NCBI RefSeq assembly: GCF_035084215.1 | Contig: NC_090330.1 | Span: forward strand, 36,394,001 to 36,458,000 | Source of the DNA: Heptranchias perlo | Lineage: Eukaryota | Reading direction: 5' to 3' | Length of the DNA stretch: 64,000 nucleotides | Shown here: positions 22,560 to 60,590 of the stretch, piece by piece | Layout: every line of letters begins with the position of its first letter | How positions within the stretch are numbered: position 1 is the first letter of the stretch | Notes under the pieces: model-generated | What the model saw: only the letters and a program-made list of their open reading frames with translations | Databases searched by the model: none | What the model was told of the DNA's origin: nothing | Program-made: the position numbers and the translations under genes

Positions 22560-22900
22560 GATCCCTTCTTCAGGAAGAATGTCACGGCCATGGGGAGGAT
22601 ATAAAAGAAGATTCGTTAAGATGATATAAGGGATTAGAGGCTTTAGTTATGAGGACAGACAAGAGAAACTGGTGTTTTCATTAAAACAGAGTGCTAACAC
22701 GTAATCTGATGCACGTGTTCAAATCACGAAAGATTTCATAAGGTAAATAAGTAAAAACTATTTCCACTGGTTAATGAGTTAGCAACTAAAGGGTATAAAT
22801 TCAAAGTCATCACCAAAAGAATGAAGGAAAAAGATAGAAGATTTTTTTTAAATAGAAAGGGTGTTAGGTCATGATTTTAATGATTCCACAATCAACAATG
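22560..22900 (+). mobile_element. Old CR1 3' fragment
   Basis: Degenerate FSYEDR.EKL, KLFPLV and FF..RV motifs. Confidence 0.6.
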
Positions 22901-23084
22901 TCAATCTTCTTGGATCCTTCATGGACACATCAATCTCCTTTTAAAGTAGGTTGTCTAAAATTGCACACAACATTCTAAATTTGATTTCCCAAATGAACTA
23001 TACACAATTAAAATAATGTGTTTGTAATTATATTCTAATGTCTTTAGACATAATTAGGCCTGTTCAAAGAGAGAGGGAGAGAGG

Positions 23085-24232
23085 AGACAAACCAGAAAGG
23101 GGGCAGGCCATATTAGATATAATAATGAGTAATAAGCCAGATTTAGTTGACAGCCGAATGGTGTGTGAACATTTATCTAATAGCGACCATATGATCGAGT
23201 TCAACGTTGTATTTGAAAGGGAGAAACCTGTATCAGCTACTAAGATTCTAAATTTAGGTAAGGCCGACTTCAATGGGATGAGACAGAGACTGTCCGCAGT
23301 AAACTGGGCAATGGATAAAACGACAGAAGATCAGTGGGAGGTGTTCAAAAAAGAATTTAAAGTGACGCAGAACCAGTTTATACCCCAAGGGGCAAGAGCT
23401 CTACTTGCCAAAAAAAACAGCCATGGATGACTAAAGAGGTAAGGGACAACATAAAACTAAAAGAGAAAGCGTACAAAAATGTAAATAGCACAGATCCTAG
23501 TGACTGGGAGAGATACAAAGAACAGCAAAGGGTGACAAAACAGATAGTAAGAGCTACAAAAGGGAGTATGAATAGAAACTTGCAAGGGATATCAAAATCA
23601 ACAAAAACATTTTTTACAATTATATTAGGAAAAAGAGGGAGGTCAAGAGCAATGTGAGCCCCTTAAAAATTGATAATGGTGATATTGTAAATGAAAATAA
23701 GGAAATGGCGGACGTGTTAAATAATTACTTTGTGTCTGTATTTACAGCAGAGGAAGAGAATAGCTTGCTGAACACCCCATGGAAACTAATTTTGAATCAG
23801 GGGCGGGAGCTCACCATAATTAACGTAAGCAAATTAACTGTAATGAAGAAATTAATGGCACTAAAAAGTGACAAATCCCCAGGACCAGATGGTTTCCATC
23901 CGAGGGTTTTAAAGGAAGTAGGTGAGAACATTGCAGATGCCCTAACTGTAATCTTCCAAAGTTCCCTCGATTCAGGAACCGTTCCTTTAGATTGGAAAGT
24001 TGCACATGTCACTCAAATGTTTAAGAAAGGGGAGGGAGGGAAACCAGGGAATTACAGACCAGTTAGCCTAACATTTGTTGTCAGGTTATTACTAGAGTCT
24101 ATAATTAAGGATAGAGTGACTGAACACCTTGAAAATTTTCAGCTGATCAGAGAGAGTAAGGATGGATTTGTAAAGGGTAGTTTGTGCCTGACGAACCTGA
24201 TTGAATGTTTTGAAGCGGTGACTAAAGTAGTG
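23085..24232 (+). mobile_element. Host CR1, 5' part (endonuclease end to RT start)
   Basis: LSNSDH, KSPGPDGFHPRVLKE, NYRPVSLT and CLTNLIE. Confidence 0.92.
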
Positions 24233-24834
24233 GAACATAGGAACAGGAGTAGGCCATTCAGCCCCTCATGCCTACTCCACCATTTGATAAGATCATGGCT
24301 GATCTGTGATCTAACTCCATATACCTGCCTTTGGCCCATATCCCTTAATACCTTTGGTTGCCAAAAAGCTATCTATCTCACATTTAAATTTAGCAATTGA
24401 GCTAGTATCAATTGCCGTTTGCGGAAGAGAGTTCCAAACTTCTACTACCCTTTGTGTGTAGAAATGTTTTCTAATCTCACTCCTGGACGGTCTGGCTCTA
24501 ATTTTTAGACTGTGCCCCCTACTCCTAGAATCCCCAACCAGTGGAAATAGTTTCTCTCTATCCACCCTCTCTGTTCCCCTTAATATCTTATAGACTTCGA
24601 TCAGATCACCCCTTAACCTTCTAAACTCTAGAGAATACAACCCCAATTTGTGTAATCTCTCCTCATAACTTAATCCTTGAAGTCCGGGTATCATTCTAGT
24701 AAACCTACGCTGCACTCCCTCCAAGGCCAATATGTCCTTCCAAAGGTGGGGTGCCCAGAACTGCTTACAGTACTCCAGGTGCGGTCTAACCAGGGTTTTG
24801 TATAGCTGCAGCATAACTTCTGCCCCCTTGTACT
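24233..24834 (-). mobile_element. Young CR1 3' segment, inverted relative to its flanks
   Basis: Open frame YKGAEVMLQLYKTLVRPHLEYC...GYGPKAGIWS plus the tail; closely matches 39525-40037. Confidence 0.95.
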
Positions 24835-26092
24835 TAAGGATAGGGTGACTGAACACCTCGAGAGACAGCATGGATTTGTGCCTGACAAACCTGATTGAAT
24901 TTTTTGAAGAGGTGACTAAAGTAGTGGTCAGGGGAATGTCAATGGATGTTATTTATATGGACTTCCAGAAGGCATTTGATAAGGTCCCACATAAGAGACT
25001 GTTAGCTAAGTTAGAAGCCCATGGAATCGAGGGAAAAGTACGGACTTGGTTAGGAAATTGGCTGAGCGAAAGGCGACAGAGAGTAGGGACAATGGGTAAG
25101 TATTCACATTGGCAGGATGTGACTAGTGGAGTCCAGCAGGGATCTGTCTTGGGGCCTCAATTATTCACAATATTTATTAACGACTTAGATGAAGGCATAG
25201 AAAGTCTCATATCTAAGTTTGCCGATGACACAAAGATTGGTGGCATTGTAAGCAGTGTAGATGAAAACATAAAATTACAAAGCGATATTGATAGATTAGG
25301 TGAATGGGCAAAACTGTGGCAGATGGAATTCAATGTGAACAAATGTGAGGTCATCCACTTTGGATCAAAAAAGGATAGAAAAGGGTACTTTCTAAATGGT
25401 AAAAAGTTAAAAACAGTGGATGTCCAAAGGGACTTAGGGGTTCAGGTATATAGATCATTGAAGTGCCATGAACAGGTGCAGAAAATAATCAAAAAGGCTA
25501 ATGGAATGCTGGCCTTTATATCTAGAGGACTAGAGTACAAGGGGGTAGAAGTTATGCTACAGCTACACAAAGCCCTGGTTAGACCACCCCTGGAGTACTG
25601 TGTTCAGTTCTGGGCACCGCACCTTCGGAAGGATATATTTGCCTTGGGGGATTAAATTACAAGGAGAGATTACACAAACTAGGGGTGTATTCCCTAGAAT
25701 TTAGAAGATTAAGGGGTGATTTGAATGAATTTTCAAGATATTAAGGGGAACTGATAGGGTGGATAGAGAGAAACTATTTCTGCTGGTTGGGGAGTCTAGG
25801 ACCAGGGGATATAACCTAAAAATTGGAGCCAGGACTTTCAGGAATGAAGTTAGGAAACACTTCTACATGCAAAGGGTGGTAGAAGTTTGGAACTATCTTC
25901 CATAAACGGCAGTTAATGCTAGCTCAATTGTTAATTTTAAATCTGAAATTAATAGATTTTTGTTAACAAAAGGTATTAAAGGATATGGGGCTACGACAGG
26001 TATATGGAGTTAGGTCACAGATTAGCCATAATCTCATTGAATGGCGGAACAGGCTTGAGGGGCTAAATGGTCTATTCCTGTTCCTATATTCC
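24834..26092 (+). mobile_element. Chimeric CR1 RT and 3' end: young subfamily to about 25540, older subfamily after
   Basis: 24900-25540 matches 38891-39530. 25546-26092 has the diagnostic bases of 47090-47668 (gggggtagaa, gctacag, tgttcag, ggggctacgacagg). Confidence 0.9.
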
Positions 26093-26099
26093 TAACAGA

Positions 26100-26320
26100 G
26101 AAGCAAAAGAGATGGACAGGAATAACAAGCCAAAGCAAAGGGGGGAAAGGCAGGGTCAGTAAAATCGTAGAGAGAAATAGAAGGAACAAAGCAACAAAAG
26201 ATATTCAAAGGAAGATTTAAAAGCAGGAAAATAAGAACAAAGTAAGAAAGAATGAGAACAAAGAAAAACAATATTGAAGCAAAGTAGAAGGCAAGAGAAA
26301 ATACAAATCTAAACAGCAAG
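26100..26320. repeat. Purine-rich (A/G) low-complexity tract
   Basis: Runs of aagaaa, aacaaa and gagaaa with no regular unit. Confidence 0.6.
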
Positions 26321-27365
26321 TAATATAGGTGTATGTCACAACCTTGAATCCTGTATACTCCAATAAGAAAAGCATGGACACAGTTGAATTGTTTCATACT
26401 TTTTCTTGAAATAATTATGCCTGTGTATACAGGAAACCATACAAGACACCAGAAGGAAAATACAGGGGAAAATGGCGTGGCATAGGGAAAAGTCTCATTA
26501 CAATATGGGAGCACTAACTGACTTGATGTTTGTATTCTTTCTCTATTCACTGATGGGCTGCTAACTTGGGGACAAATGACAAACATTAATATTAACATTT
26601 TTAAAAGAAGCAATTATTATAAAAGATTTCACAGCCTTAAATTTGTGGAAAATTATTTTAATATTCTTTGAATCCTACACCTAAATAAATGTCCACTATA
26701 ATTCTTAAATGATTATGGCCATATTGATACTTCCACAAGTTGCAGTTCAATTTAAAACTGCCCTTCAGAATCAGAATGCAGCACCTTTGGCCACTTTCAT
26801 ACAGTTTTCAGACATATGTTGATCAAGACATTTAAAACTACATTGATATACATCATTATTAACTATTTATTCTGAGAGTTTTAAAGTTTGATCAGATGTA
26901 TACCAAATTGTAAAATTTCCATAATGGCTTTAATGATTCATTATATTCGTAAATAGTTATTCTAAATTTTTTAATTGATATTTTCCATTTTTGCCAAAGG
27001 GCCCCCTAAAATTTAGCCATGAGCTAAAGTGGATACCTTTCTAGCCTATATTGCTGTGGTTCCAAATTGCTTTACTAAAATACTGTAATAAATTTATGGA
27101 ATGTATTCAAACATTAAGATATTAAGCAGATCATCAATCACAAAATCCTGATAGACAATATATAGCTGGATCGAGGATTGATTTTTTATATTTGGTAAAA
27201 ATATTAGATAATCCTTTGTTTTGGAACATCTGCAAAGTGCACTGGATGAAAACAAACAAATAAAAGGGGTGAGAAACTTTCTTTAAATGCTTTTTATAAT
27301 ATCCTAGACTGGTGGGATAAAGTCTTTTTCTGAAGGGATCCTTTTTAACATATTTTGAGAACACT

Positions 27366-28644: not shown

Positions 28645-30702
28645 GGAACATAGGACATTGGAACATAGGAACAGGAGTAGGCCATTTAGCCCATCGAGCC
28701 TGTTCCGCCATTCAATCTGTGATCTGTGACCTAACTCCATGTACCCGCCTTAGCCCCATATCCCTTAATACTTTTGGTTAACAAAAATCTATTAATCTCA
28801 GACTTAAAATTAACAATTGAGCTCGCATCAACTGCCATTTGCGGAAGAGAGTTCCAAACTTCTACCACCCTTTGCGTATAGAAGTGTTTCCTAACTTCAC
28901 TCCTCAAGGTCCTGGCTTTAATTTTTATGCTATGTCCTCTAGTCCCCAACCAGCAGAAATAGGGTAGATAGAGAGAAACTATCAGTTCCCCTTAATATCT
29001 TGAAAACTTCAATCAAATCACCCTTTAATTTCCTAAATTCCAGGGAAAACAAGCCTAGTTTGTGAATTCTCTCCTTGTAATTTAACCTTTGGGGTCCAGG
29101 TATCATTCTAGTAAATCTCCCTCCAAGGACAATATATCCTTCCTAAGGTGCAGTGCCCAGAACTGTACTCCAGGTGTGGTCTAAGCATGGCTTTGTATAG
29201 CTGTAGCATAACTTCTATTCCCTTGCTATTCTAGTCCTTTAGATATGAAGGCCTACATTCCATTAGCCTTTTTGATTATTTTCTGTACCTGTCCATGGCA
29301 TTTTAATGATCTATGTACATGGACCCCTAAGTCTCTTGGACCTCCACTGTTTTGAGCTTTTCACCATTTAGAAAGTACTCTGATCTATCCTTTTTAGGTC
29401 CAAAGTGGATTACCTCATATTTACAGTGAAATCCATTTGCCACAGTTTTGCCCATTCACTTAATCTATTAATATCTCTCTGTAATTTTATGCTTCCATCT
29501 ACACTGCTTACAATGCTGCCCATTTTTGTGTCATCGGCAAACTTGGATATGTGGCTCTCTATCCCGTCTTTTAAGTTGTTAATAAATACAGTGAATAGTT
29601 GCGGCCCCAACACAAATCCCTGTGGGACACCACGGGGGTGATTTTAGGAGGCAAATGCGGGTGCGTGGGGGCGGGGGGGGTTCCAAAAATCGCAGAAATC
29701 CCATTCGGGTTTGGAAGCCGGCTCCAACCCGCCGGCTTCCGAGTTTCCCAGGGTCCCACCTGTGTGCGCGCGGGCGATCCAAAACTGGAAATCCTGCCAG
29801 CAATTAAAGCTGCGGGATGACAGTTAAAGAGCCAAATGTACCTCATTGACAGATGAAATGATTGGAAAGATTTTTAAATTACCTGGGCGGCTTGCCCACC
29901 ACTTCTGATTCACGCCTGGTCAAACCAGGCCTGAAAGGCCGGATCAGGGAGAAAGAAACTAAATAAATTAAATAAAAAAACATGCAATGAAGTGAAAACA
30001 CTAAGTGCACCTACCTTTGAAACCTGCTCTGATGTCCGATGTCTCCCGTTCCGATGTCCCCCTCTTCACCCTCCCGATGTCCCCCCGATCTCCCCCGATG
30101 TCCCCCCCATCTCACCCTCCCGATCTTCCCCCGATCTTCCCCCAATGTTCCCCCATCTCACCCTCCCAGTCTTCCCCCGATCTCCCCCCGATGTCCCCCT
30201 GATCTCACCCTCCTGATCTTCCCCTCTCCCCCTCCCCCCCCGGTCTTCCCCTCTCCTCCCCCCCACCCGGATCTTCCCGTCTCCTCCCCACGGTCTTCCA
30301 GTCCACCGCCAGATAATGTCCGGCTCTCTCTCTTCCCCCCACCCCTCGCGTTGCAGCTCCTGATGGCAGCTAGCCTGTCAATCAGGCTAGCTGCCGGGCA
30401 TGAAACCCGGAGAGGACCTTAACCACTATCAATCAACATGCGATCACGTCAGAAATGGGTAAGTTTGGTTCATCTGGGTTTGCCACGTGCTCAATCGCAC
30501 CCCCACACTGCCAACCCGCCTCCCTGCTAATATCAGGGCCCACTAGTCACATCCTGCCAATTTGAGTACCTGCCCATTATCCCTACTCTCTATCTCTTGT
30601 CGTTCAGCCAATTTCCTAACCAGGTCAATAATTTGCCCTCAATTCCATGAGCTTCAACTTTAGCTAATAGTCTCATATGAGGGATTTTATTGAATGCCTT
30701 CT
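28645..30702 (-). mobile_element. 5'-truncated CR1 (older subfamily) split by a MITE
   Basis: LGPQLFTVFIN, KFADDTK, KHFYTQRVVEVWNSLP and the tail. Rejoins as gacaccac|tagtcac across 29634-30540. Confidence 0.93.
29634..30540. mobile_element. Harbinger-type non-autonomous element with a 3-bp TSD (CAC)
   Basis: TIR gggggtgattttag / ctaatatcagggcc, with CAC at 29631-29633 and 30541-30543. Internal cccgat(g/c)tc repeats at 30035-30300. Confidence 0.88.
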
Positions 30703-30873
30703 ATCCAGTGACACCTGCTGGGAATTCACGAGCAGAAGTCAGTTGAGGAGAGGATCGGGCTCCACTGTGATATCCCTTGAAGAGCAGTTTACTCTGAACT
30801 ACACGTTGTGGTGTTTGGAGTAATGGAGCAGAACAAAGAAGGCCCAAACTGGATTCCCTTTCCAACTGGAGGA
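30701..30873 (+). repeat. 173-bp copy of 31511-31683
   Basis: Near-identical ctatccagtgacacctgctggg...ggcccaaactggattcc..tcca.ctggagga. Confidence 0.92.
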
Positions 30874-31319: not shown

Positions 31320-31690
31320 TCCTCCAATGACTCAAGTGAATTTATCCAACAAGTGGTTGAGTCACATACACCAAGAAGGTGCCACTTTTAATTGTTAATC
31401 TACTCTGAGTTAGTTGATCTCGGCCAGAGTGGTGGGAGAGGTGCTACAATTGGCACTCAGCTCCCTGGGCTAGCAGGGGGAAATCTGTCAGGGAGTTCTA
31501 TTCCTGTTTACTATCCAGTGACACCTGCTGGGAGTTCACAAGCAGAAGTCAGTTGAGGAGAGGATCGGGCTTTACTGTGATATCCCTCGCAGAGCAGTTT
31601 ACTCTGAACGACACGTTGTGGTGTTTGGAGTAATGGAGCAGAACAAAGAAGGCCCAAACTGGATTCCATTTCCAGCTGGAGGATTCAAGT
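31320..31690 (+). mobile_element. SINE, same family as 16640
   Basis: ctgagttagttgatctc, tacaattggc, ctatccagtgac and aggatcgggct. Confidence 0.65.
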
Positions 31691-32865: not shown

Positions 32866-34532
32866 TCTTCAGCCAGAAGTGCCGAGTGGCTGATCCATCT
32901 CGGCCTCCTCCCAATATCCCCACCATCACAGTCTTCAGCCAATTTGATTCACTTCACATGATATCAAGAAACGGCCGAGTGCACTGGATGCAGCAAAGGC
33001 TATGGGCCCTGACAACATCCCGGTTGTAGTGCTGAAGACTTGTGCTCCAGAACTAGCCGCACCTCTAGCTAAACTGTTCCAGTACAGCTACAACATTGGC
33101 ATCTACCCGACAATGTGGAAAATTGCCCAGGTATGTCCTGTCCACAAAAAGCAGGACAAATCTAATCCGGCCAATTACCGCCCCATCAGTGTACTCTCAA
33201 TCATCAGCAAAGTGATGGAAGGTGTCGTCGACAGTGCTATCAAACGGCACTTACTCACCAATAACCTGCTCACCGATGCTCAGTTTGGGTTCCGCCAGGA
33301 CCACTCGGCTCCAGACCTCATTACAGCCTTGGTCCAAACATGGACAAAATAGCTGAATTCCAGAGGTGAGGTGAGAGTGAGCATTTGACCGAGTGTGGCA
33401 CTAAGGAGCCCTAGTAAGATTGAAGTCAATGGGAATCTGGGGGAAAACTCTCCAGTGGCTGGAGTCATACCTAGCACAAACGAAGGTGGTAGTGGTTGTT
33501 GGAGGCCAATCATCTCAGCCTCAGGAAATTGCTGCAGGAGTTCCTCAGGGCAGTGTCCTAGGCCCAACCATCTTCAGCTGCTTCATCAATGACCTTCCCT
33601 CCATCATAAGATCAGAAATGGCGATGTTCGCTGATGATTGCACAGTGTTCAGTTCCATTCGCAACCCCTCAGATAATGAAGCAGTCCGAGCCCGCATGCA
33701 GCTTGACCTGGACAACATCCAGGCTTGGGCTGATAAGTGGCAAGTAACATTCACGCCAGACAAGTACCAGGCAATGACCATCTCCAACAAGAGAGAATCT
33801 AACCACCTCCCCTTGACATTCAATGGCATTACCATCGCTGAATCCCCCACCATCAACATCCTGGGGGTCACCATTCACAAGAAACGTAACTGGACCAGCC
33901 ATATAAATAATGTGGCTACAAGAGCAGGTCAGAGGCTGGGTATTCTGTGGCGAGTGACTCACCTCCTGACTCCCCAAAGCCTTTCCACCATCTACAAGGC
34001 ACAAGTCAGGAGTGTGATGGAATACTCTCCACTTGCCTAGATGAGTGCAGCTCCAACAACACTCAAGAAGCTCGACACCATCCAGGGCAAAGCAGCCCGG
34101 TTGATTGGCACCCCATCCACCACCCTAAACATTTACTCCCTTTACCACTGGCGCACCGTGGCTGCAGTGTGTACAATCCACAGGATGCACTGCAGCAACT
34201 CGCCAAGGCTTCTTCGACAGCACCTCCCAAACCCGCGACCTCTACCACCTAGAAGGACAAGGGCAGCAGGCATAAGGGAACAACACCACCTGCATGTTCC
34301 CCCCAAGTCACACGCCATCCCAACTTGGAAATATATCGCCGTTACTTCATCGTCACTGGGTCAAAATCCTGGAACTCCCCTCCTAACAGCACTGTGGGAG
34401 AACCTTCACCACATGGACTGCAGCGGTTCAAGAAGACGGCTCATCACCACCTTCTCAAGGGCAATTAGGGATGGGCAATAACATGATGGCCTTGCCAGCG
34501 ACGCCCACATCCCATGAACGAATAAAAAAAAA
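32866..34532 (+). mobile_element. Second CR1-clade LINE family, 5'-truncated RT with an A-rich end
   Basis: GPDNIP..VLK, NYRPIS.LS, QFGFR, GVPQGSVLGP, MFADD and QVRSVMEYSP. Ends gaataaaaaaaaa. Confidence 0.93.
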
Positions 34533-34569
34533 TTCAGAGAACGCACAGCGCTGACACTATCGAGTTCCG

Positions 34570-38890: not shown

Positions 38891-40037
38891 TTTTTTGAAG
38901 AGGTGACTAAAGTAGTGGTCAGGGGAATGTCAATGGATGTTATTTATATGGACTTCCAGAAGGCATTTGATAAGGTCCCACATAAGAGACTGTTAGCTAA
39001 GATAGAAGCTCATGGAATTGAGGGAAAAGTACGGACTTGGTTAGGAAGTTGGCTGAGCGAAAGGCGACAGAGAGTAGGGATAATGGGAAGGTACTCACAT
39101 TGGCAGGATGTGACTAGTGGAGTCCCGCACGGATCTGTCTTGGGGCCTCAATTATTCACAATATTTATTAACGACTTAGATGAAGGCATAGAAAGTCTCA
39201 TATCTAAGTTTGCCGATGACACAAAGATTGGTGGCATTGTAAGCAGTGTAGATGAAAACATAAAATTACAAAGCGATATTGATAGATTAGGTGAATGGGC
39301 AAAATTGTGGCAAATGGAATTCAATGTAGACAAATGTGAGGTCATCCACTTTGGATCAAAAAAGGATAGAACAGGGTACTTCTAAATGGTAAAAAGTTAA
39401 AAACAGTGGATGTCCAAAGGGACTTAGGGGTTCAGGTACATAGATCATTGACGTGTCATGAACAGGTGCAGAAAATAATCAAGAAGGCTAATGGAATGCT
39501 GGCCTTTATATCTAGAGGACTAGAGTACAAGGGGGCAGAAGTTATGCTGCAGCTATACAAAACCCTGGTTAGACCGCACCTGGAGTACTGTGAGCAGTTC
39601 TGAGCACCACACCTTCGGAAGGACATATTGGCCTTGGAGGGAGTGCAGCATAGGTTTACTAGAATGATACCTGGACTTCAAGGGTTAAGTTACGAGGAGA
39701 GATTACACAAATTGGGGTTGTATTCTCTAGAGTTTTGAAGGTTAAGGGGTGATCTGATTAAGAGGTTAAGAGCCAGACCTTTCAGGAGCGAGATTAGAAA
39801 ACATTTCTACACACAAAGGGTGGTAGAAGTTTGGAACTCTCTTCCGCAAACAGCAATTGATACTAGCTCAATTGCTAAATTTAAATCTGAGATAGATAGC
39901 TTTTTGGCAACCAAAGGTATTAAGGGATATGGGCCAAAGGCAGGTATATGGAGTTAGATCACAGATCAACCATGATCTTATCAAATGGCGGAGCAGGCAC
40001 GAGGGGCTGAATGGCCTACTCCTGTTCCTATGTTCCT
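38891..40037 (+). mobile_element. Young CR1 (5'-truncated) inserted into the tail of an older minus-strand CR1, TSD ACAT
   Basis: ACAT at 38887-38890 and 40038-40041. The flanks rejoin as gtgtttatgccgcacatgagcctcctccc, the reverse complement of the CR1 3' UTR seen at 20345-20380. Confidence 0.93.
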
Positions 40038-40663
40038 ACATGAGCCTCCTCCCTCCCTATTTCATCTATCCTTCTAAAAGATGATGGTTAGGGAATTTAC
40101 AGCTGCAGTGACTAGATGACTTTTTTAAAAAACAATTCCAACTTGACCCTTTCTTGGGGTCATGTCTATCAGTGTCAGACGGATTGTCTGAGAGAAACAA
40201 TCTTGGTTGTGGCAGGTGAAGGACCGTCAAACATTACACAAGTGGACCTCCAGGCACATAATTTAAGAACGAACACTGATGGCTGTACAGATGTCCAGGC
40301 AGCGGACCAGATAGTCTTCCCAACTTTTCCCAATGCCATGGATGAAGAACAGGATTTAGCAACGCTAAAACATTACCACATTTCATGAATGATTTAACAA
40401 TGTTCTGTACTAGTCAGTAACTCCTGACAAGTACAACTTCAAATAACAGCATTTGTTTTGCTCGAAATACCAACTTGCTCTTAAATGAATAGATATACAT
40501 AGCGACAATTGAATAAATGGAAATAATTGAATGAAAATGCATAGAGATAGTAAAATCAAAAGACAGAGTTAATCCAGCTTGTTGGGGAGGGGGTCGGTGG
40601 GAGAAGAGAGACAGAATCAGAGGGACAGAGTCAGAGACAGACGGAGAGATAGCGAGAGAGAAT

Positions 40664-41402: not shown

Positions 41403-42187
41403 ATAGTTTTGTTTGGTTTATCTTTAAAAGGTAGGGTAGAAACTTTGCAGTTCCTTTTCTCAGGAAATGAAATGGGTCAGGTAGAGTTAAAGTGGATTGC
41501 ACACCGTCCGTGGAAAACTAGGCTTGCGCATTCCATGTCATCTTTATGTCCCTGGGAGTCTAAGTGAATTTTCAATGGGATGTGTAAAAGTCGGTTAATT
41601 GTATTTTAAATGAGCCAGCATCACCCTTTATGGGCTCCATGAAGCTCAAGCAGATAATTATCACAAACCTCACACTTTGACTGACTCTCTTGAAGATGAT
41701 TTAACCACGAGGAAATAAACTACAGCTAAAACTCGTGCAACAGGGAGCTGCGTGATAGTGATTGTGCTAACTGCTGTGCTTCTCACAAAGTAATGCGCAT
41801 TAAGGGAAAAGCTTTTCTTCAAATTAGAATATAAATGCAGGCAAATAAGGAAATGTTAACGTGCAAAATTCTGAAAGATTGCAATTATGAGTCAGTATAA
41901 AGACCCATTTGCTGAATGGCTAAATTACCTGCAGAAATACTTATCCAAGAACTGCTTTTTCAAAATCACAGCAAAGCAACTTTTTTTACATGCTATTTTT
42001 CAGACTTTGGAAAAATATTAAAACCCACTTAGAATATTCATAAAATTCATTTGGATTATACATACATATTGCATTTTAATTCACATCTCAAGTTAACATT
42101 TATGGTTCTTGGTGGGTCCAATAAAATGTCAGTCATGGGTTAAAATCTGGTTTATTCTCATATCACAATACTTAATGTGTCAAAGAA

Positions 42188-43225
42188 ATTTTTTTTATTC
42201 ATTCACAGGATGTGGGCATCGCTGGCAAGGCCAGCATTTGTTGCCCATCCCTAATTGCCATTGAGAAGGTGGTGGTGAGCCACCTTCTTGAACCGCTGCA
42301 GTCCGTGTGGTGAAGGTTCTCCCACAGTGCTGTTAGGAAGGGAGTTCCAGGATTTTGACCCAGCGACGATGAAGGAACGGCGATATATTTCCAAGTCGGG
42401 ATGGTGTGTGACTTAGAAGGGAACGTGCAGGTGGTGTTGTTCCCACGTGCCTGCTGCCCTTGTCCTTCTAGGTGGTAGAGATTGCGGGTTTGGGAGGTAC
42501 TGTCGAAGAAGCCTTGGCGAGTTGCTGCAGTGCATCCTGTGGATGGTACACACTGCAGCCACGGTGCGCCGGTGGTGAATGGAGTGAATGTTTAGGGTGG
42601 TGGATTGGGTGCCAATCAACCGGGCTGCTTTGTCCTGGATGATGTCCAGCTTCTTGAGTGTTGTTGGAGCTGCACTCATCCAGGCAAGTGGAGAGTATTC
42701 CATCACACTCCTGACTTGTGCCTTGTAGATGGTGGAAAGGCTTTGGGGAGTCAGGAGGTGAGTCACTCACCGCAGAATACCCAGCCTCTGACCTGCTCTT
42801 TTAGCCACAGTATTTATGTGGCTTGTCCAGTTAAGTTTCTGGTCAATAGTGACCCCCAGGATGTTGATGGTGGGAGATTCAGCGATGGTAATGCCATTGA
42901 ATGTCAAGGGGAGATGGTCTTTGCCTGGCACTTGTCTGGCGGGAATGTTACTTGCCACTTATGAGCCCAAGCCTGGATGTTGTCCAGGTCTTGCTGCATG
43001 CGGGCTCGGACTGCTTCATTATCTGAGGGTTGCGAATGGAACTGAACACTGTGGGGTCATCAGCGAACATCCCCATTTCTGACCTTATGATGGAGGGAAG
43101 GTCATTGATGAAGCAGCTGAAGATGGTTGGGCCGAGGACACTGGCCTGAGGAACTCCTACAACAATGTTCTGGGGCTGAGATAATTGGCCTCCAACAACC
43201 ACTACCATCTTCCTTTGTGCTAGGT
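42188..43225 (-). mobile_element. Second-family CR1-clade LINE fragment
   Basis: Collinear with 33470-34532; GVPQASVLGP and MFADD. Confidence 0.92.
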
Positions 43226-44368
43226 TTGGTACATCTTGTATTATAAACCCACAAACCTCACAGGATATTATGTTGTAGTCCAAGGTATCAGGTTAAAGTG
43301 AAAAAAAGCTCACATAAAATGTTTTTTTTAAATGAGCGTTGAATCCCACTTTTCTTTCTCAACGCATAGCTCAATTAACCTTTTGACAAGTGATTACATT
43401 TACTTTGCGCTACTGTTTTCTTGATTGTCAGTCTCAGCAGCATCTGATGCTCAGATTTGCAAGACATGTGCGTCATGTGTTTTGTAATTTCTCTGAGACC
43501 AGTGGATAGTTGAAGCATTTTGCTTTTGGGAGGGGTGGGTGGGAACGACACCATCTGACTCATGGTACAGTCACATGCCCTGTTAGATAAGCCTGCTGCA
43601 CAATGACAGATTATAGAGAGGAGAAAATAAATAAGATTTATCTAGATGGCTTCTGTTTCATTTCCACATAGTTCAACGATAGCTGTTGCTTATTGTGTTA
43701 ATGTGCATTTAATGATTGCTACATAAATTCATTACGGTGCTGGTCACTATTTTTCTTTAAACATCTGCTGTGTATGAAATGACCAGGTGCTTCAAAATTC
43801 CACTCTCTTATAATGGGATTATAAAGAGGTGTCAACTGAGGATGTGATCTGTTGTCCAATAAAGCAAAATCCTTGTGAATTAGCTTTCACATAATCAATA
43901 GCATTATTACAATATAAGATATTGATTAATACATATCTTTGGCAAACTGGTCAATGCTCCAGTTATAATTGAAGGAAGCAGACCCAACACTAACCAAATT
44001 TCATCAAGCACTGCAAAACCTGTGATCTTGACAATGGGTTGTCTCTATGAACAGCAAAGATCATAAATCTAAGTGGACTAACAATAGCTAATGTGCCTGC
44101 TTAAATGCAGCAGGGACAGTGAACTGTGCTGTGTGAAACAGCAGCTCACATTGCAATTCAAGGTCTTGTATAAGAGATAAGTACTTGTGCAAACAACAGA
44201 CCTGAACTAGCTACACACTCTTTCAGAAGCAGTGTCAATGTTGAAAGAACTATATCCCCTTAAGCTCTACAGCTCTTGTGATGGGAACTAAGCTAATATA
44301 TGCAGCACCATAGAACTGGGGACAGAACAACCGCTCAAATAGCTACATGGAATAGAACAAATGGAGAT

Positions 44369-45434: not shown

Positions 45435-46440
45435 AATGGTGGAAGTCATACCTGACACAAAGGAAGATGGTTGTGGTTGTCAGAGAACAGTCGGCACAGC
45501 TCCAGGATATCACTGCTATAGTTCCTCAAGGAAGCATCCTTGGCCCAATTGTCTTCAGCTGATTGATCAATGACCTACCCTTCCACCATACCGTCAGGAG
45601 TGGGGCTATTCGCTAATAATTCCAGTGTTTGGCTCAATTTACGACATCCCCAATAATGAAGCAGCCCATGCCAGCCCACAACAGGACCTGGATACCATCC
45701 AGGCAGGGCTGACAAGTGGCAGGTAACATTTATGCTGCATAAGTGCCAGATAATGACCATCCCAAACAAGAGAATGCCCAATCATCTCCCCTTGTCCTTC
45801 AATGCCACCACTATCACAGAGTCCCCCACCATTGACATCTTGGGACCAGAAGCTTAACTGGACTAGCCATATCAACAAGTCTAAAGAGCCCGGCAGAGAC
45901 TGGGTACTCTGTGACAAGTGGCTCACTTCATGAACCCTCAAAACCTCTCCACCATCTACAGGGCTCTGGTCAGGAGTCTGATGGAATAATCATAACTCAC
46001 CTGGATGAGTGCCTCCACAACAACACTCAAGAAGCTCAACCCCATCCAGAACAGAGCAGTTTGCTTGTCTGGCACCTGTCACCAGGCTCAATATCCATCC
46101 CCTCAATCACTAGTGCACTGTGGCTGCAACATATACAATCTACAGGATGCACTTCGACAGCACCTCCCTCCCCCCTAACCTCTACCACCAAGAACAAGAG
46201 TAGCAATGTAATGAGAACACCATCATCTCTAAAGCTCCCCTCCAAGTCATATGCAATCCTGACTTAGACACATATTGCTGGATCAATAAGCTAGAATTCC
46301 CTACTGAACACCATTGTGGAAGCACTAGCACCACCAGGACTGCAGCGGTCAAGGAGAAGGCCCACCACCATCACTTTCTCAGGTCAACCAAGGATGAGCA
46401 AAAAAATGCAGCCTTGCCAGTTTAGCTCACATCCTGAGAG
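45435..46440 (+). mobile_element. Older degraded copy of the second-family LINE
   Basis: Collinear with 33455-34520 but carries many indels. Confidence 0.85.
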
Positions 46441-46509
46441 ATGAAAACAAATGCAATGCATGTTCATTGCAGATTTCAAAACACTGGAAAATGAACCAAA
46501 TAAAGTGTT

Positions 46510-47668
46510 TTCCAGAAGGCATTTGATAAAGTCCCTCATAAGAGATTGTTAGCTAAATTTGAAGCTCATGGAATTGAGGGCAAATTATTGACCTGGTTAG
46601 GGAATTGGCTGAGCGTCAGGAGACAGAGAGTAGGGATAATGGGCAGATACTCAAATTGGCAGGATGTGACTAGTGGTGTCCCACAGAGATCTGTGTTGGG
46701 GCCTCAACTATTCACTGTATTTATCAACGACTTAGATGACAGGATAGAGAGTCACATATCCAAGTTTGCCGATGACACAAAGATAGGCAGCATTGTAAGC
46801 AGTGTAGATGGAAGCATAAAATTACAGAGAGATATTAATAGATTAAGTGAATGGACAAAACTGTGGCAAATGGATTTCAATTTAGGCAAGTGTAAGGTCA
46901 TCCACTTTGATCTATCCTTTTTAGGTCCAGAGTACTTTCTAAATGGTGAAATGCTCAAAGCAGTGGAGGTCCAAAGAGACCTCAGGGTCCAAGTACATAG
47001 ATCATTAAAATGTTAAGGACAGGTACAGAAAATAATCAAAAAGGCTAATGGAATGCAGGCCTTTATATCTAGCAGACTAGAATACAAGGGGGTAGAAGTT
47101 ATGCTACAGCTATACAAAGCCATGGTTAGACCACACCTGGAGTACTGTGTTCAGTTCTGGGCACTGCACCTTAGGAAGGATATATTGGCCTTGGAGGGAG
47201 ATTTACTAGAATGATACCTGGATTCCAAGGGTTAAAATAAGAGGAGAGATTACACAAACTAGGGTTGTATTCCTTGGAATTGAGAAGATTAAGGGATGAT
47301 TTGATCGAAGTTTTCAAGATGTTAAGGAGAACTGATAGGGTAGAGAGAAACTATTTCCACTGGTTGGGGAGTCTAGGACTAGGGGACATAGCCTAAAAAT
47401 TAGAGCCAGGACTTTGAGGAGTGAAGTTAGGAAACACTTCTACATGCAAAGGGTGGTAGAAGTTTGGAACTCTGTTCTGCAAACAGCAGTTCATGCAAGC
47501 TCAATCGTTAATTTTAATCCGAGATTGATAGATTGTTGTTAATCAAAGGTATTAAGGGATATGGGGCTACGACAGGTATATGGAGTTCGGTCACAGGTCA
47601 GCCATGATCTCATTGAATGGCAGAACAGGCTCGATGGGCTAAATGGCCTACTCCTGTTCCTATGTTCT
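46510..47668 (+). mobile_element. CR1 3' portion (older subfamily)
   Basis: GVPQRSVLGPQLF, KFADDTK and the tail cctgttcctatgttct. Confidence 0.93.
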
Positions 47669-54230: not shown

Positions 54231-54291
54231 CTATTAGATAACATGCTGGCAAATTGGAGACAAAAGTTTGTAATCAAAGGTCATTATAATT

Positions 54292-55475
54292 TTTTCTTAC
54301 TCGTTCATGGAATGTGGGCATCGCTGTCAAGGCCAGCATTTATTGCCCATCCATAATTGCCCTTGAGAAGGTGCTGGTGAGCCGCCTTCTTGAACCGCTG
54401 CAACCCATGTGGTGCAGATTCTCCCACAGTGCTGTTAGGTAGGGAGTTCCAGGATTTTGACCCAGCGACGACGAAGGAATGGCGATATATTTCCAAGTCG
54501 GGATGGTGTGTGACTTGGAGGGGATCGTGCAGGTGGTGTTGTTCCCATGTGCCTGCTGCCCTTGTCCTTCTAGCTGGTAGAGGTCGCGGGTTTGGGAGGT
54601 GCTGTCGAAGAAGCCTTGGCGAGTTGCTGCAGTGTGTCCTGTGGATGATACACACTGCAGCCACAGTGCGCGGTGGTGAAGGGAGTGAATGTTTAGGGTG
54701 GTGGATGGGGTGCCAATCAAGTGGGTTTCTTTGTCTTGGGATGGTGTCGATCTTCTAGAGTGTTGTTGGAGCTGCACTCATCTAGGCAAGTGGAGAGTAT
54801 TCCATCACACTCCTGACTTGTGCCTTGTAGATGATGGAAAGGCTTTGGGGAGTCAGGAGGTGAGTCACTCGCCGCAGAATACCCAGCCTCTGACCTGCTC
54901 TTGTAGCCACAGTATTTATGTGATTGGTCCAGTTAAGTTTCTTGTGAATGGTGATCCCCAGGATGTTGATGGTGGGGGATTCGGCGATGGTAATGCCATT
55001 GAATGTCAAGGGGAGGTAGTTAGACTCTCTCTTGTTGGAGATGGCCATTGCCTGGCACTTGTCTGGCGTGGATGTTACTTGTCACTTATCAGCCCAAGCC
55101 TGGATGTTGCCCAGGTCTTGCTGCATGCAGGCTCGGACTGCTTCATTATTTGAGGGGTTGCGAATGGAACTGAACACTGTGCAATCATCAGCAAACATCC
55201 CCATTTCTGACCTTATGATGGAGGGAAGTTCATTGATGAAGCAGCTGAAGATGGTTGGGTCTGGGACACTGCCCTGAGGATCTCCTGCAGCAATGTCCTG
55301 GAGCTGAGATGATTGGCCTCCAACAACCATTACCATCTTCCTTTGTGCTAGGTATGATTCCAGCCACTGGAGAGTTTTCCCCGATTCCATTGACTTCATT
55401 TTTACTAGGGCTTCTTGATGCCACACTCGTTCAAATGCTGCCTTGATGTCAAAAGCGGTCACTCTCACCTCACCA
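54292..55475 (-). mobile_element. Second-family CR1-clade LINE fragment
   Basis: DIKAAFERVWH, PQGSV and MFADD; same tail as 34532. Confidence 0.92.
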
Positions 55476-60154: not shown

Positions 60155-60590
60155 CCAAGGGCTACTGGCAGCGGCGGACCTGAGCGGCGATAGAGCAGCA
60201 GCGGGCCCATGAAGAGCGGGGGAAGAGGCCTCGAGACCAGAGCTACCGGCAGCGGCGGACCTGAGCGGTGGCAGCGGGCCCATGAAGAGCGGGGGAAGAG
60301 GCCTCGAGACCAGAGCTACCGGCAGCGGCGGACCTGAGCGGTGGCAGCGGGCCCATGAAGAGCGGGGGAAGAGGCCTCGAGACCAGAGCTACCGGCAGCG
60401 GCGGACCTGAGCGGTGGCAGCGGGCCCATAAAGAGTGGGGGAAGAGGCCTCGAGATCAGAGCTACCGGCAGCGGCGGACCTGGGTGGTGGCAGCGGGCCC
60501 ATAAAGAGCAGGGGAAGAGGCCTCGAGACCAGAGCTACCGACGGCAGGGGACCTGAGCGACAGCAGCGGGCCCATAAAGAGCGGGGGACC
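60155..60590 (+). repeat. Tandem array of a 73-bp GC-rich unit (about 6 copies) at the CR1 5' end
   Basis: gaga(c/t)cagagctacc starts at 60233, 60306, 60379, 60452 and 60525 (period 73), with partial or variant units at each end. Confidence 0.95.

Follow-up and report, generated by a model that had tools for sequence, protein, structure and literature searches.

The stretch of DNA analysed here, which we call the window, comprises 64,000 nucleotides of the Heptranchias perlo genome (assembly GCF_035084215.1, contig NC_090330.1, positions 36,394,001 to 36,458,000 of the forward strand). Comparison of the window with itself located four CR1 pieces at 23097-26092 and, taken together with searches of the 3.25-Gb genome for each piece and with diagnostic columns, confirmed that an old-subfamily CR1-type LINE is interrupted here by two pieces of one young subfamily; the coordinates, the orientations and the young-in-old structure that an earlier note on this DNA had proposed all stood. 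A real young copy (L092, slice) served as the ruler, and positions on it are given as "ref." The diagnostic columns are the 205 sites that differ between the two groups, drawn from 58 young and 58 old loci.

The 5' remainder of the host, itself 5'-truncated, lies on the plus strand at 23097-24233 (ref 13-1157), and its 97 diagnostic sites are old at 91, young at 3 and of another type at 3. At 24232-24234 the host sense strand overlaps by 3 nt (GGA) the reverse complement of a young tail, in what would be the junction of the first primer; old copies continue with GGACAG (ref 1156-1161), whereas the window sequence enters the young tail instead. The inverted 3' end of a young CR1, with its 3' UTR and a short (CCTATGTT)-type tail, follows on the minus strand at 24233-24834 (ref 1764-2366; 50 of 51 diagnostic sites young and 1 of another type) and may represent the first cDNA. 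Alignment to intact young copies places the inversion junction between the two young pieces at 24834, with a 1-nt overlap (T). The putative second cDNA, a sense piece on the plus strand at 24834-25535 (about ref 1030-1765), begins ~128 nt upstream of the host break point and passes in register into the old host within 25536-25545 (plus strand, ref 1766-1775), where the 3' end of a host antisense primer would have lain. The old host resumes on the plus strand at 25546-26092 with its 3' remainder, which retains its own tail and has a 42-nt internal deletion near 25650. The host ends at ref 1157-1158 and picks up again at ref 1766-1776, so that about 0.61 kb of it is gone, and no target site duplication (TSD) around the host is evident by eye.

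Two deletions, of 21 and 14 nt, lie at 24860-24882 on the plus strand, at the start of the sense piece and hence near the end of the putative second cDNA. They are private to this locus: a spacing of 36 was found solely in the six retrieved copies of the locus itself, and a spacing of 71 in 86 other matches. The earlier note had recognised short deletions near 24860-24880; the "tttgt" microhomology that it gave for them was not recovered, since against young copies the longer deletion has GAGA microhomology and one substitution and the shorter has GTG. Its suggestion that jumps of the reverse transcriptase made them is plausible, and end-joining accounts for them equally well.

CR1 elements have a short 3' UTR that ends in an 8-nt microsatellite rather than in poly(A), and they generate short TSDs. 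The family studied here has a short 3' UTR, an 8-nt microsatellite tail that is not poly(A) and, as judged from tails and nests, short TSDs. The frame at 24879-25646 is open across the switch, contains a FADD motif and matches RVT_1 (E=1.8e-20). The CR1 label, which is probably correct, draws on this reverse transcriptase frame, the tail and the TSD features. A 9-bp stem ahead of the tail folds, with a z of 0.03 against shuffles. For the related ZfL2-1, a TSD length peak of 3-5 bp is given in the available part of PMC4245944.

Contigs built from the reads of two public runs (X1, X3), which may come from the assembly's own sample, bridge the two outer junctions between element and flank only (22639-23133 and 26058-26900), with even flank depth; the contigs were placed at 90% likeness, and other copies hid the inner junctions. 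Two further runs (X10, X11) have little or no depth at the unique flanks of the locus.

Several other repeats occupy the window. The copies at 38891-40038 and 46510-47667 are young and old, respectively, as the earlier note had claimed; the former has lost about 100 nt internally (ref 1999-2098), with 10 unaligned bases at the join. Some 0.9 kb of other sequence interrupts an old minus-strand CR1 (28657-30702) at ref 1356-1359, and the segment at 30701-30873 is repeated at 31511-31683 (95%). Another repeat family, of 1.1 kb, has four copies in both orientations that are 68-92% alike (33380-34536, 42185-43228, 45440-46455 and 54288-55439), and units of about 73 nt are repeated in tandem at 60158-60588.

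The Subfamily Switch and the Ages of the Pieces

The earlier note had proposed that informative sites be mapped across the sense piece and its junction with the host, and such mapping reveals a sharp young-to-old switch at 25536-25545 that involves no insertion or deletion. Up to 25535 the plus-strand sequence is young at 58 of 58 sites, and from 25546 it is old at 45 of 47 and young at 2. The last young-type base, G25535, is present in 58 of 58 young copies and in 2 of 47 old ones, and T25546, A25559 and G25572 are of the old type. The switch interval is a 10-nt identical stretch within in-register homology and lies immediately beyond the 57-nt tract (ref 1708-1765) that is the longest identical one in the 3' half; several mosaics elsewhere, L024, L074 and L164 among them, switch in the identical tract.

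The switch interval and the start of the inverted piece (ref 1764) overlap by 2-12 nt. A switch placed at random along the host's remaining 1.18 kb has about a 1% chance of lying no more than 12 nt from the inversion point. Furthermore, ref 1765 is young in both young pieces; 2 of 47 old copies carry the young base there, close to the background of 4.3% (334 of 7,698 sites). This favours two passes over the RNA at that position, an argument for double copying that leans on a single base.

The best matches elsewhere in the genome are consistent with this division. The inverted piece matches 39 other copies at 97% and the sense piece (24885-25530) reaches 97-98%, compared with 86-89% for the 5' host piece and 83-92% for the 3' host piece. 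The inverted and sense pieces differ from the majority of their group at 6 of 568 and 6 of 631 non-CpG positions (~1%), and the host pieces from the old-copy majority at 51 of 1081 (4.7%, 5' piece) and 26 of 532 (4.9%, 3' piece). Divergence is therefore equal within each pair, and it differs between young and host sequence with P=3e-9. The sub-lineage markers tried for linking the two young pieces were mostly CpG decay and hence confounded.

Inversions in the CR1 Family

No 5' inversion occurs among 95 sampled young copies, which comprise the first 30 motif loci of contig 1 and 65 young copies that retain their 3' end from 60 further 10-kb stretches. Searches of the genome with four head-to-head patterns gave 27 matches at 26 loci, the studied locus included. 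Eight of these are simple antiparallel nests (L168, L169, L176, L183, L187, L191, L193 and L194); five are two-tailed pairs that lack both a spacer and a host remainder (L171, L174, L181, L189 and L192); eight are short inverted patches or complex forms (L172, L175, L178, L179, L182, L184, L186 and L188); three are neighbours 80-260 nt apart (L173, L177 and L190); and only one is a plain 5' inversion (L180:1279-2071), whose 3' piece (ref 1877-2369) and inverted piece (ref 1544-1838) are separated by a 38-nt gap. Twin-priming-like products thus exist in this family but are very rare, and the full structure of the studied locus is repeated neither in the 25 other head-to-head loci nor in the 3 other clean young-and-old chimeras described below (L121, L122 and L213).

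Two candidates for further cases were rejected: L152, taken for a plain 5' inversion, forms a simple antiparallel nest together with its neighbour L153, and L168, which breaks at ref 1767 and was taken for a second case, proved to be a simple nest when wider DNA was considered. In each of the two-tailed pairs (L196-L200 in their wider versions), two 5'-truncated young CR1s are joined head to head at a distance of 0-5 nt; both outer ends carry a tail, and the surrounding DNA contains no remnant of a host out to about 4.5 kb. The arms differ at 5 of 353 positions in L181 and at 2 of 120 in L192. Such pairs may have arisen by snap-back or by double priming at the tail. Of the complex forms, L186 is an antiparallel insertion with an adjoining 66-nt host inversion, and L172, L175 and L182 contain short inverted internal pieces inside single copies.

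Young and Old Chimeras Elsewhere in the Genome

A single young motif has 10,482 matches in the genome, and three young-to-old motif pairs have 3, 7 and 5, the third pair having recovered the 24233-25546 locus as a control; as the pairs demand exact motifs and span only a portion of the element, about half of the cases in their range may have escaped them. These counts rule out a natural mosaic subfamily, a possibility that the earlier note had named as fatal to its proposal. Among the 14 distinct motif-pair loci there are 4 clean chimeras with a young 5' and an old 3' part (L121, L122, L213 and the studied locus), 8 patchy mosaics (L161-L167 and L211) and 2 old copies (L123 and L210); only the studied locus switches at ref 1766-1775 or adjoins an inverted young 3' piece. 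A further supposed mosaic, L084, was an artefact of projection.

The clean chimeras L121 and L122 switch at ref 1929-1952 and 1954-1966 and are without an inverted piece. L213 (1004-2390, read on the minus strand; L274 in its wider version) consists of old ref 1347-1515, young 955-1816 and old 1833 to the end; it has 6-7 nt of microhomology and no young tail, 0.3 kb of its host has been replaced, and its old 3' end is joined in register. Either host-primed copying or direct-repeat recombination could have produced it. L024 (1268-2106) is a same-orientation chimera with an old 5' and a young 3' part, and L074, L161-L167 and L211 have young patches within old sequence, several of them switching in the identical tract at ref 1701-1765.

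The earlier note had regarded the event as a route to CR1 subfamily chimeras, a view that the survey weakens: the inverted piece is present in one of the four clean young-5'/old-3' chimeras, patchy mosaics and same-orientation chimeras are commoner, and the product is without the element's 5' half. It is a dead, promoterless fragment, and the event seems to have been an isolated accident and not a usual path to new elements.

Host Strand as the Probable Second Primer

The best reading of the locus, and one that we consider probable, is twin priming of a single RNA in which the antisense strand of the host served as an in-register second primer. The sense strand of the host would have been nicked at 24232-24234 and paired over 3 nt with the RNA tail, and extension of this first primer to ref 1764 would have added about 600 nt. 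Some 0.61 kb further downstream, a break in the host antisense strand at ref 1766-1775 would have allowed that strand to pair with the same RNA at its homologous site, with about 85% identity in the pairing 3' of the second-primer position; its extension toward the 5' end of the RNA would have run for about 735 nt, with 21 and 14 nt lost near the end. The two cDNA ends would then have been joined through their 1-nt overlap and the host stretch between the breaks lost. We infer all of these priming steps from the product. An 85%-identical antisense copy is able to pair in register with the RNA, and the exact register of the host junction argues for placement by homology rather than by chance microhomology. 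Moreover, 5' inversions are nearly absent from the family, and the long homology may have been what permitted this one.

A site prone to nicking could have supplied the second break. Insertions into CR1s cluster at ref 1764-1780 (4 of 35, with 0.38 expected; P=7e-4), in a small and partly biased sample in which the edge of the hot-spot interval was chosen after the data had been seen and one of the four events came from a position-biased search. These four independent insertions are L147, L105, L168/L195 and L273, and L105, a same-orientation CR1 insertion, implies a nick on the strand needed for the second primer. Host-strand priming has its own demands: the host primer would have had to displace the first cDNA from the RNA, and breaks 0.6 kb apart would have required extra processing. 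The closeness of the start of the sense piece to the host break (~128 nt) would have to be due to chance. RNA folding at the switch and in the 3' UTR is no better than that of shuffled sequences, and hence we claim no structural pause site. The earlier note had proposed the annealing of the host antisense strand to the RNA and the replacement of about 0.6 kb of host, and this remains the best explanation, having survived the note's own refutations on the subfamily switch and on a natural mosaic; the single fossil product also fits one-cDNA exchange or later recombination.

In the former, strand exchange would have occurred at integration: a first strand running from the tail to about ref 1030 would have paired with the adjacent host sense strand; at ref ~1765 it would have been cut and linked crosswise to the host antisense strand, with resection of the host stretch and rejoining of the ends. 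This one event would account for the order of the pieces, the in-register switch and the coincident breaks; new Alu inserts recombine with a resident copy in 6 of 226 cases in the available part of PMC3415434, and L024 has a comparable same-orientation old-5'/young-3' form. A single cut, however, predicts no duplicated young base, and the bases at ref 1764-1765, rare among old copies, are young in both pieces; furthermore, all 58 sites would have to be repaired to the young type and the left overhang trimmed to within 2 nt. We regard this exchange as improbable. Later rearrangement of an ordinary insertion appears unlikely as well. In one version, an antiparallel young copy would have created an imperfect palindrome of 1.2 kb, and a cut at the base of the resulting hairpin or cruciform would make both break points coincide; a short spacer, such as the ~128-nt distance, is expected on this model. 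In the other, the sense arm of a two-tailed young pair, a form present at 5 of the 26 head-to-head loci, would have recombined with the host downstream. L213, with its tailless young segment between old ends, fits direct-repeat recombination, and together with the patchy mosaics it demonstrates exchange between young and old sequence without inversion, which lends weight to the recombination routes. Such histories nonetheless require two rare events, the arms are only about 85% alike, and the eight simple antiparallel nests, most of them with arms 93-97% alike, have persisted unrearranged. For direct-repeat recombination, a match with the inversion point has a chance of only 1-6%; such recombination should also take place preferentially in the 57-nt identical tract and so leave an old base at ref 1765.

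It is very improbable that the structure is an artefact or a coincidence, whether a natural mosaic subfamily, three unrelated fragments that happen to adjoin or a misassembly, the last being itself unlikely. Patchy mosaics of young and old sequence do occur (L161-L167 and L211), and the inner junctions were hidden from the read contigs by other copies. Against this stand the motif counts, the restriction of the ref 1766-1775 switch to this locus, and the matching ages within each pair, the private deletions and the in-register joins, which are unlike a mis-join or chance. Gene conversion alone was rejected, as it explains neither why the sense piece begins 128 nt upstream of the host break nor why the break points coincide; snap-back was ruled out as the cause, the 3' part of the sense arm being old host.

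Relation to Known Systems

Twin priming is reportedly the source of 5'-inverted L1 insertions (Ostertag and Kazazian 2001). On the minus strand, the studied locus runs host, inverted upstream piece, 3' piece, tail, host, which is the twin-priming order given for L1 in the available part of PMC2912911. In one tumour study, 1,703 5'-inverted L1 insertions are reported in a set of 3,598, and small duplications at the inversion point are a described feature of twin priming (10.1101/2024.08.27.596794, available in part); the human inversions listed in the available text of PMC4859970 involve L1, SVA and processed pseudogenes only. The studied locus resembles L1 twin priming in having a tailed 3' piece whose start coincides with the end of an inverted upstream piece, a small overlap at the inversion point (2-12 nt) and microhomology at the join between the cDNAs. 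It differs in that its second primer pairs in register through long homology, whereas that of L1 pairs through "spurious complementarity", and in that a 0.61-kb host loss takes the place of a TSD. The element is, moreover, unlike L1 in being of the CR1 type with a microsatellite tail and in the absence of inversions from the 95 sampled copies. With 0.61 kb of host lost and the usual flanking TSD missing, it is not a canonical member of the twin-priming class, but it works like one.

Gilbert and coworkers are said to have described, in 2002 and 2005, chimeric L1 insertions with target deletion that were completed by recombination with a resident copy, and the 2005 work may contain a closer case. 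The resident-copy Alu and L1 chimeras in the available part of PMC3415434 are like the present locus in that homology with a resident relative sets one junction, a TSD is missing, host sequence is lost and a subfamily chimera results. In those chimeras, however, the resident is parallel and the product old-5'/new-3', whereas the present locus combines an antiparallel resident with a young-5'/old-3' product and an inverted tail piece. The available text on ZfL2-1, an L2/CR1-like element, describes short TSDs and no 5' inversions, and suggests that its overhang of ~5 nt is too short for a second priming on the RNA (PMC4245944); the studied locus would be the exception that this idea allows, for a long homologous primer was present and an inversion formed. 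Simple nests in the present genome have overlaps of about 1-14 nt. Inverted element sequence is also made during integration at R2 cDNA snap-back junctions (PMC11371274) and in the remodelling of L1 ends (10.1101/2024.12.14.628481), as described in the available parts of both sources. Snap-back as described for R2 uses the new cDNA as its template, so that both arms would end in young 3' sequence, whereas the 3' part of the sense arm is old here; it suits the two-tailed pairs better.

Both twin priming and recombination with resident copies are thus known, and what appears to be new, within the literature searched, is their combination, with a resident antiparallel strand as the primer and a reversed polarity of the chimera. 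Our full-text search found no homology-primed inversion in a resident antiparallel copy, a weak negative in that most subscription papers and bioRxiv supplements lay beyond its coverage.

Implications

We tentatively suggest that the length of pairing is what limits twin priming, so that a LINE that hardly ever inverts may do so where an antiparallel resident relative supplies, at a site prone to nicking, a primer that pairs in register over a long stretch. As part of the same conjecture, host-strand priming without the tail step might make young-5'/old-3' chimeras such as L121, L122 and L213, an active CR1 RNA overwriting old copies in place. The generality of the mechanism is probably low, and the weight of the locus is that of one fossil event, with no function and no evidence that it seeded new subfamilies.

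The twin-priming model was derived from L1 and assumes chance pairing over a few bases. Here, in a family nearly free of inversions, the identity of the second primer as a strand of an older relative can be followed at the level of single bases, and the locus is a natural test of whether the pairing of primer and RNA decides inversion. It also illustrates that older copies can be partly deleted and overwritten when a new element inserts, a point relevant both to the dating of repeats and to the use of nested elements as markers.
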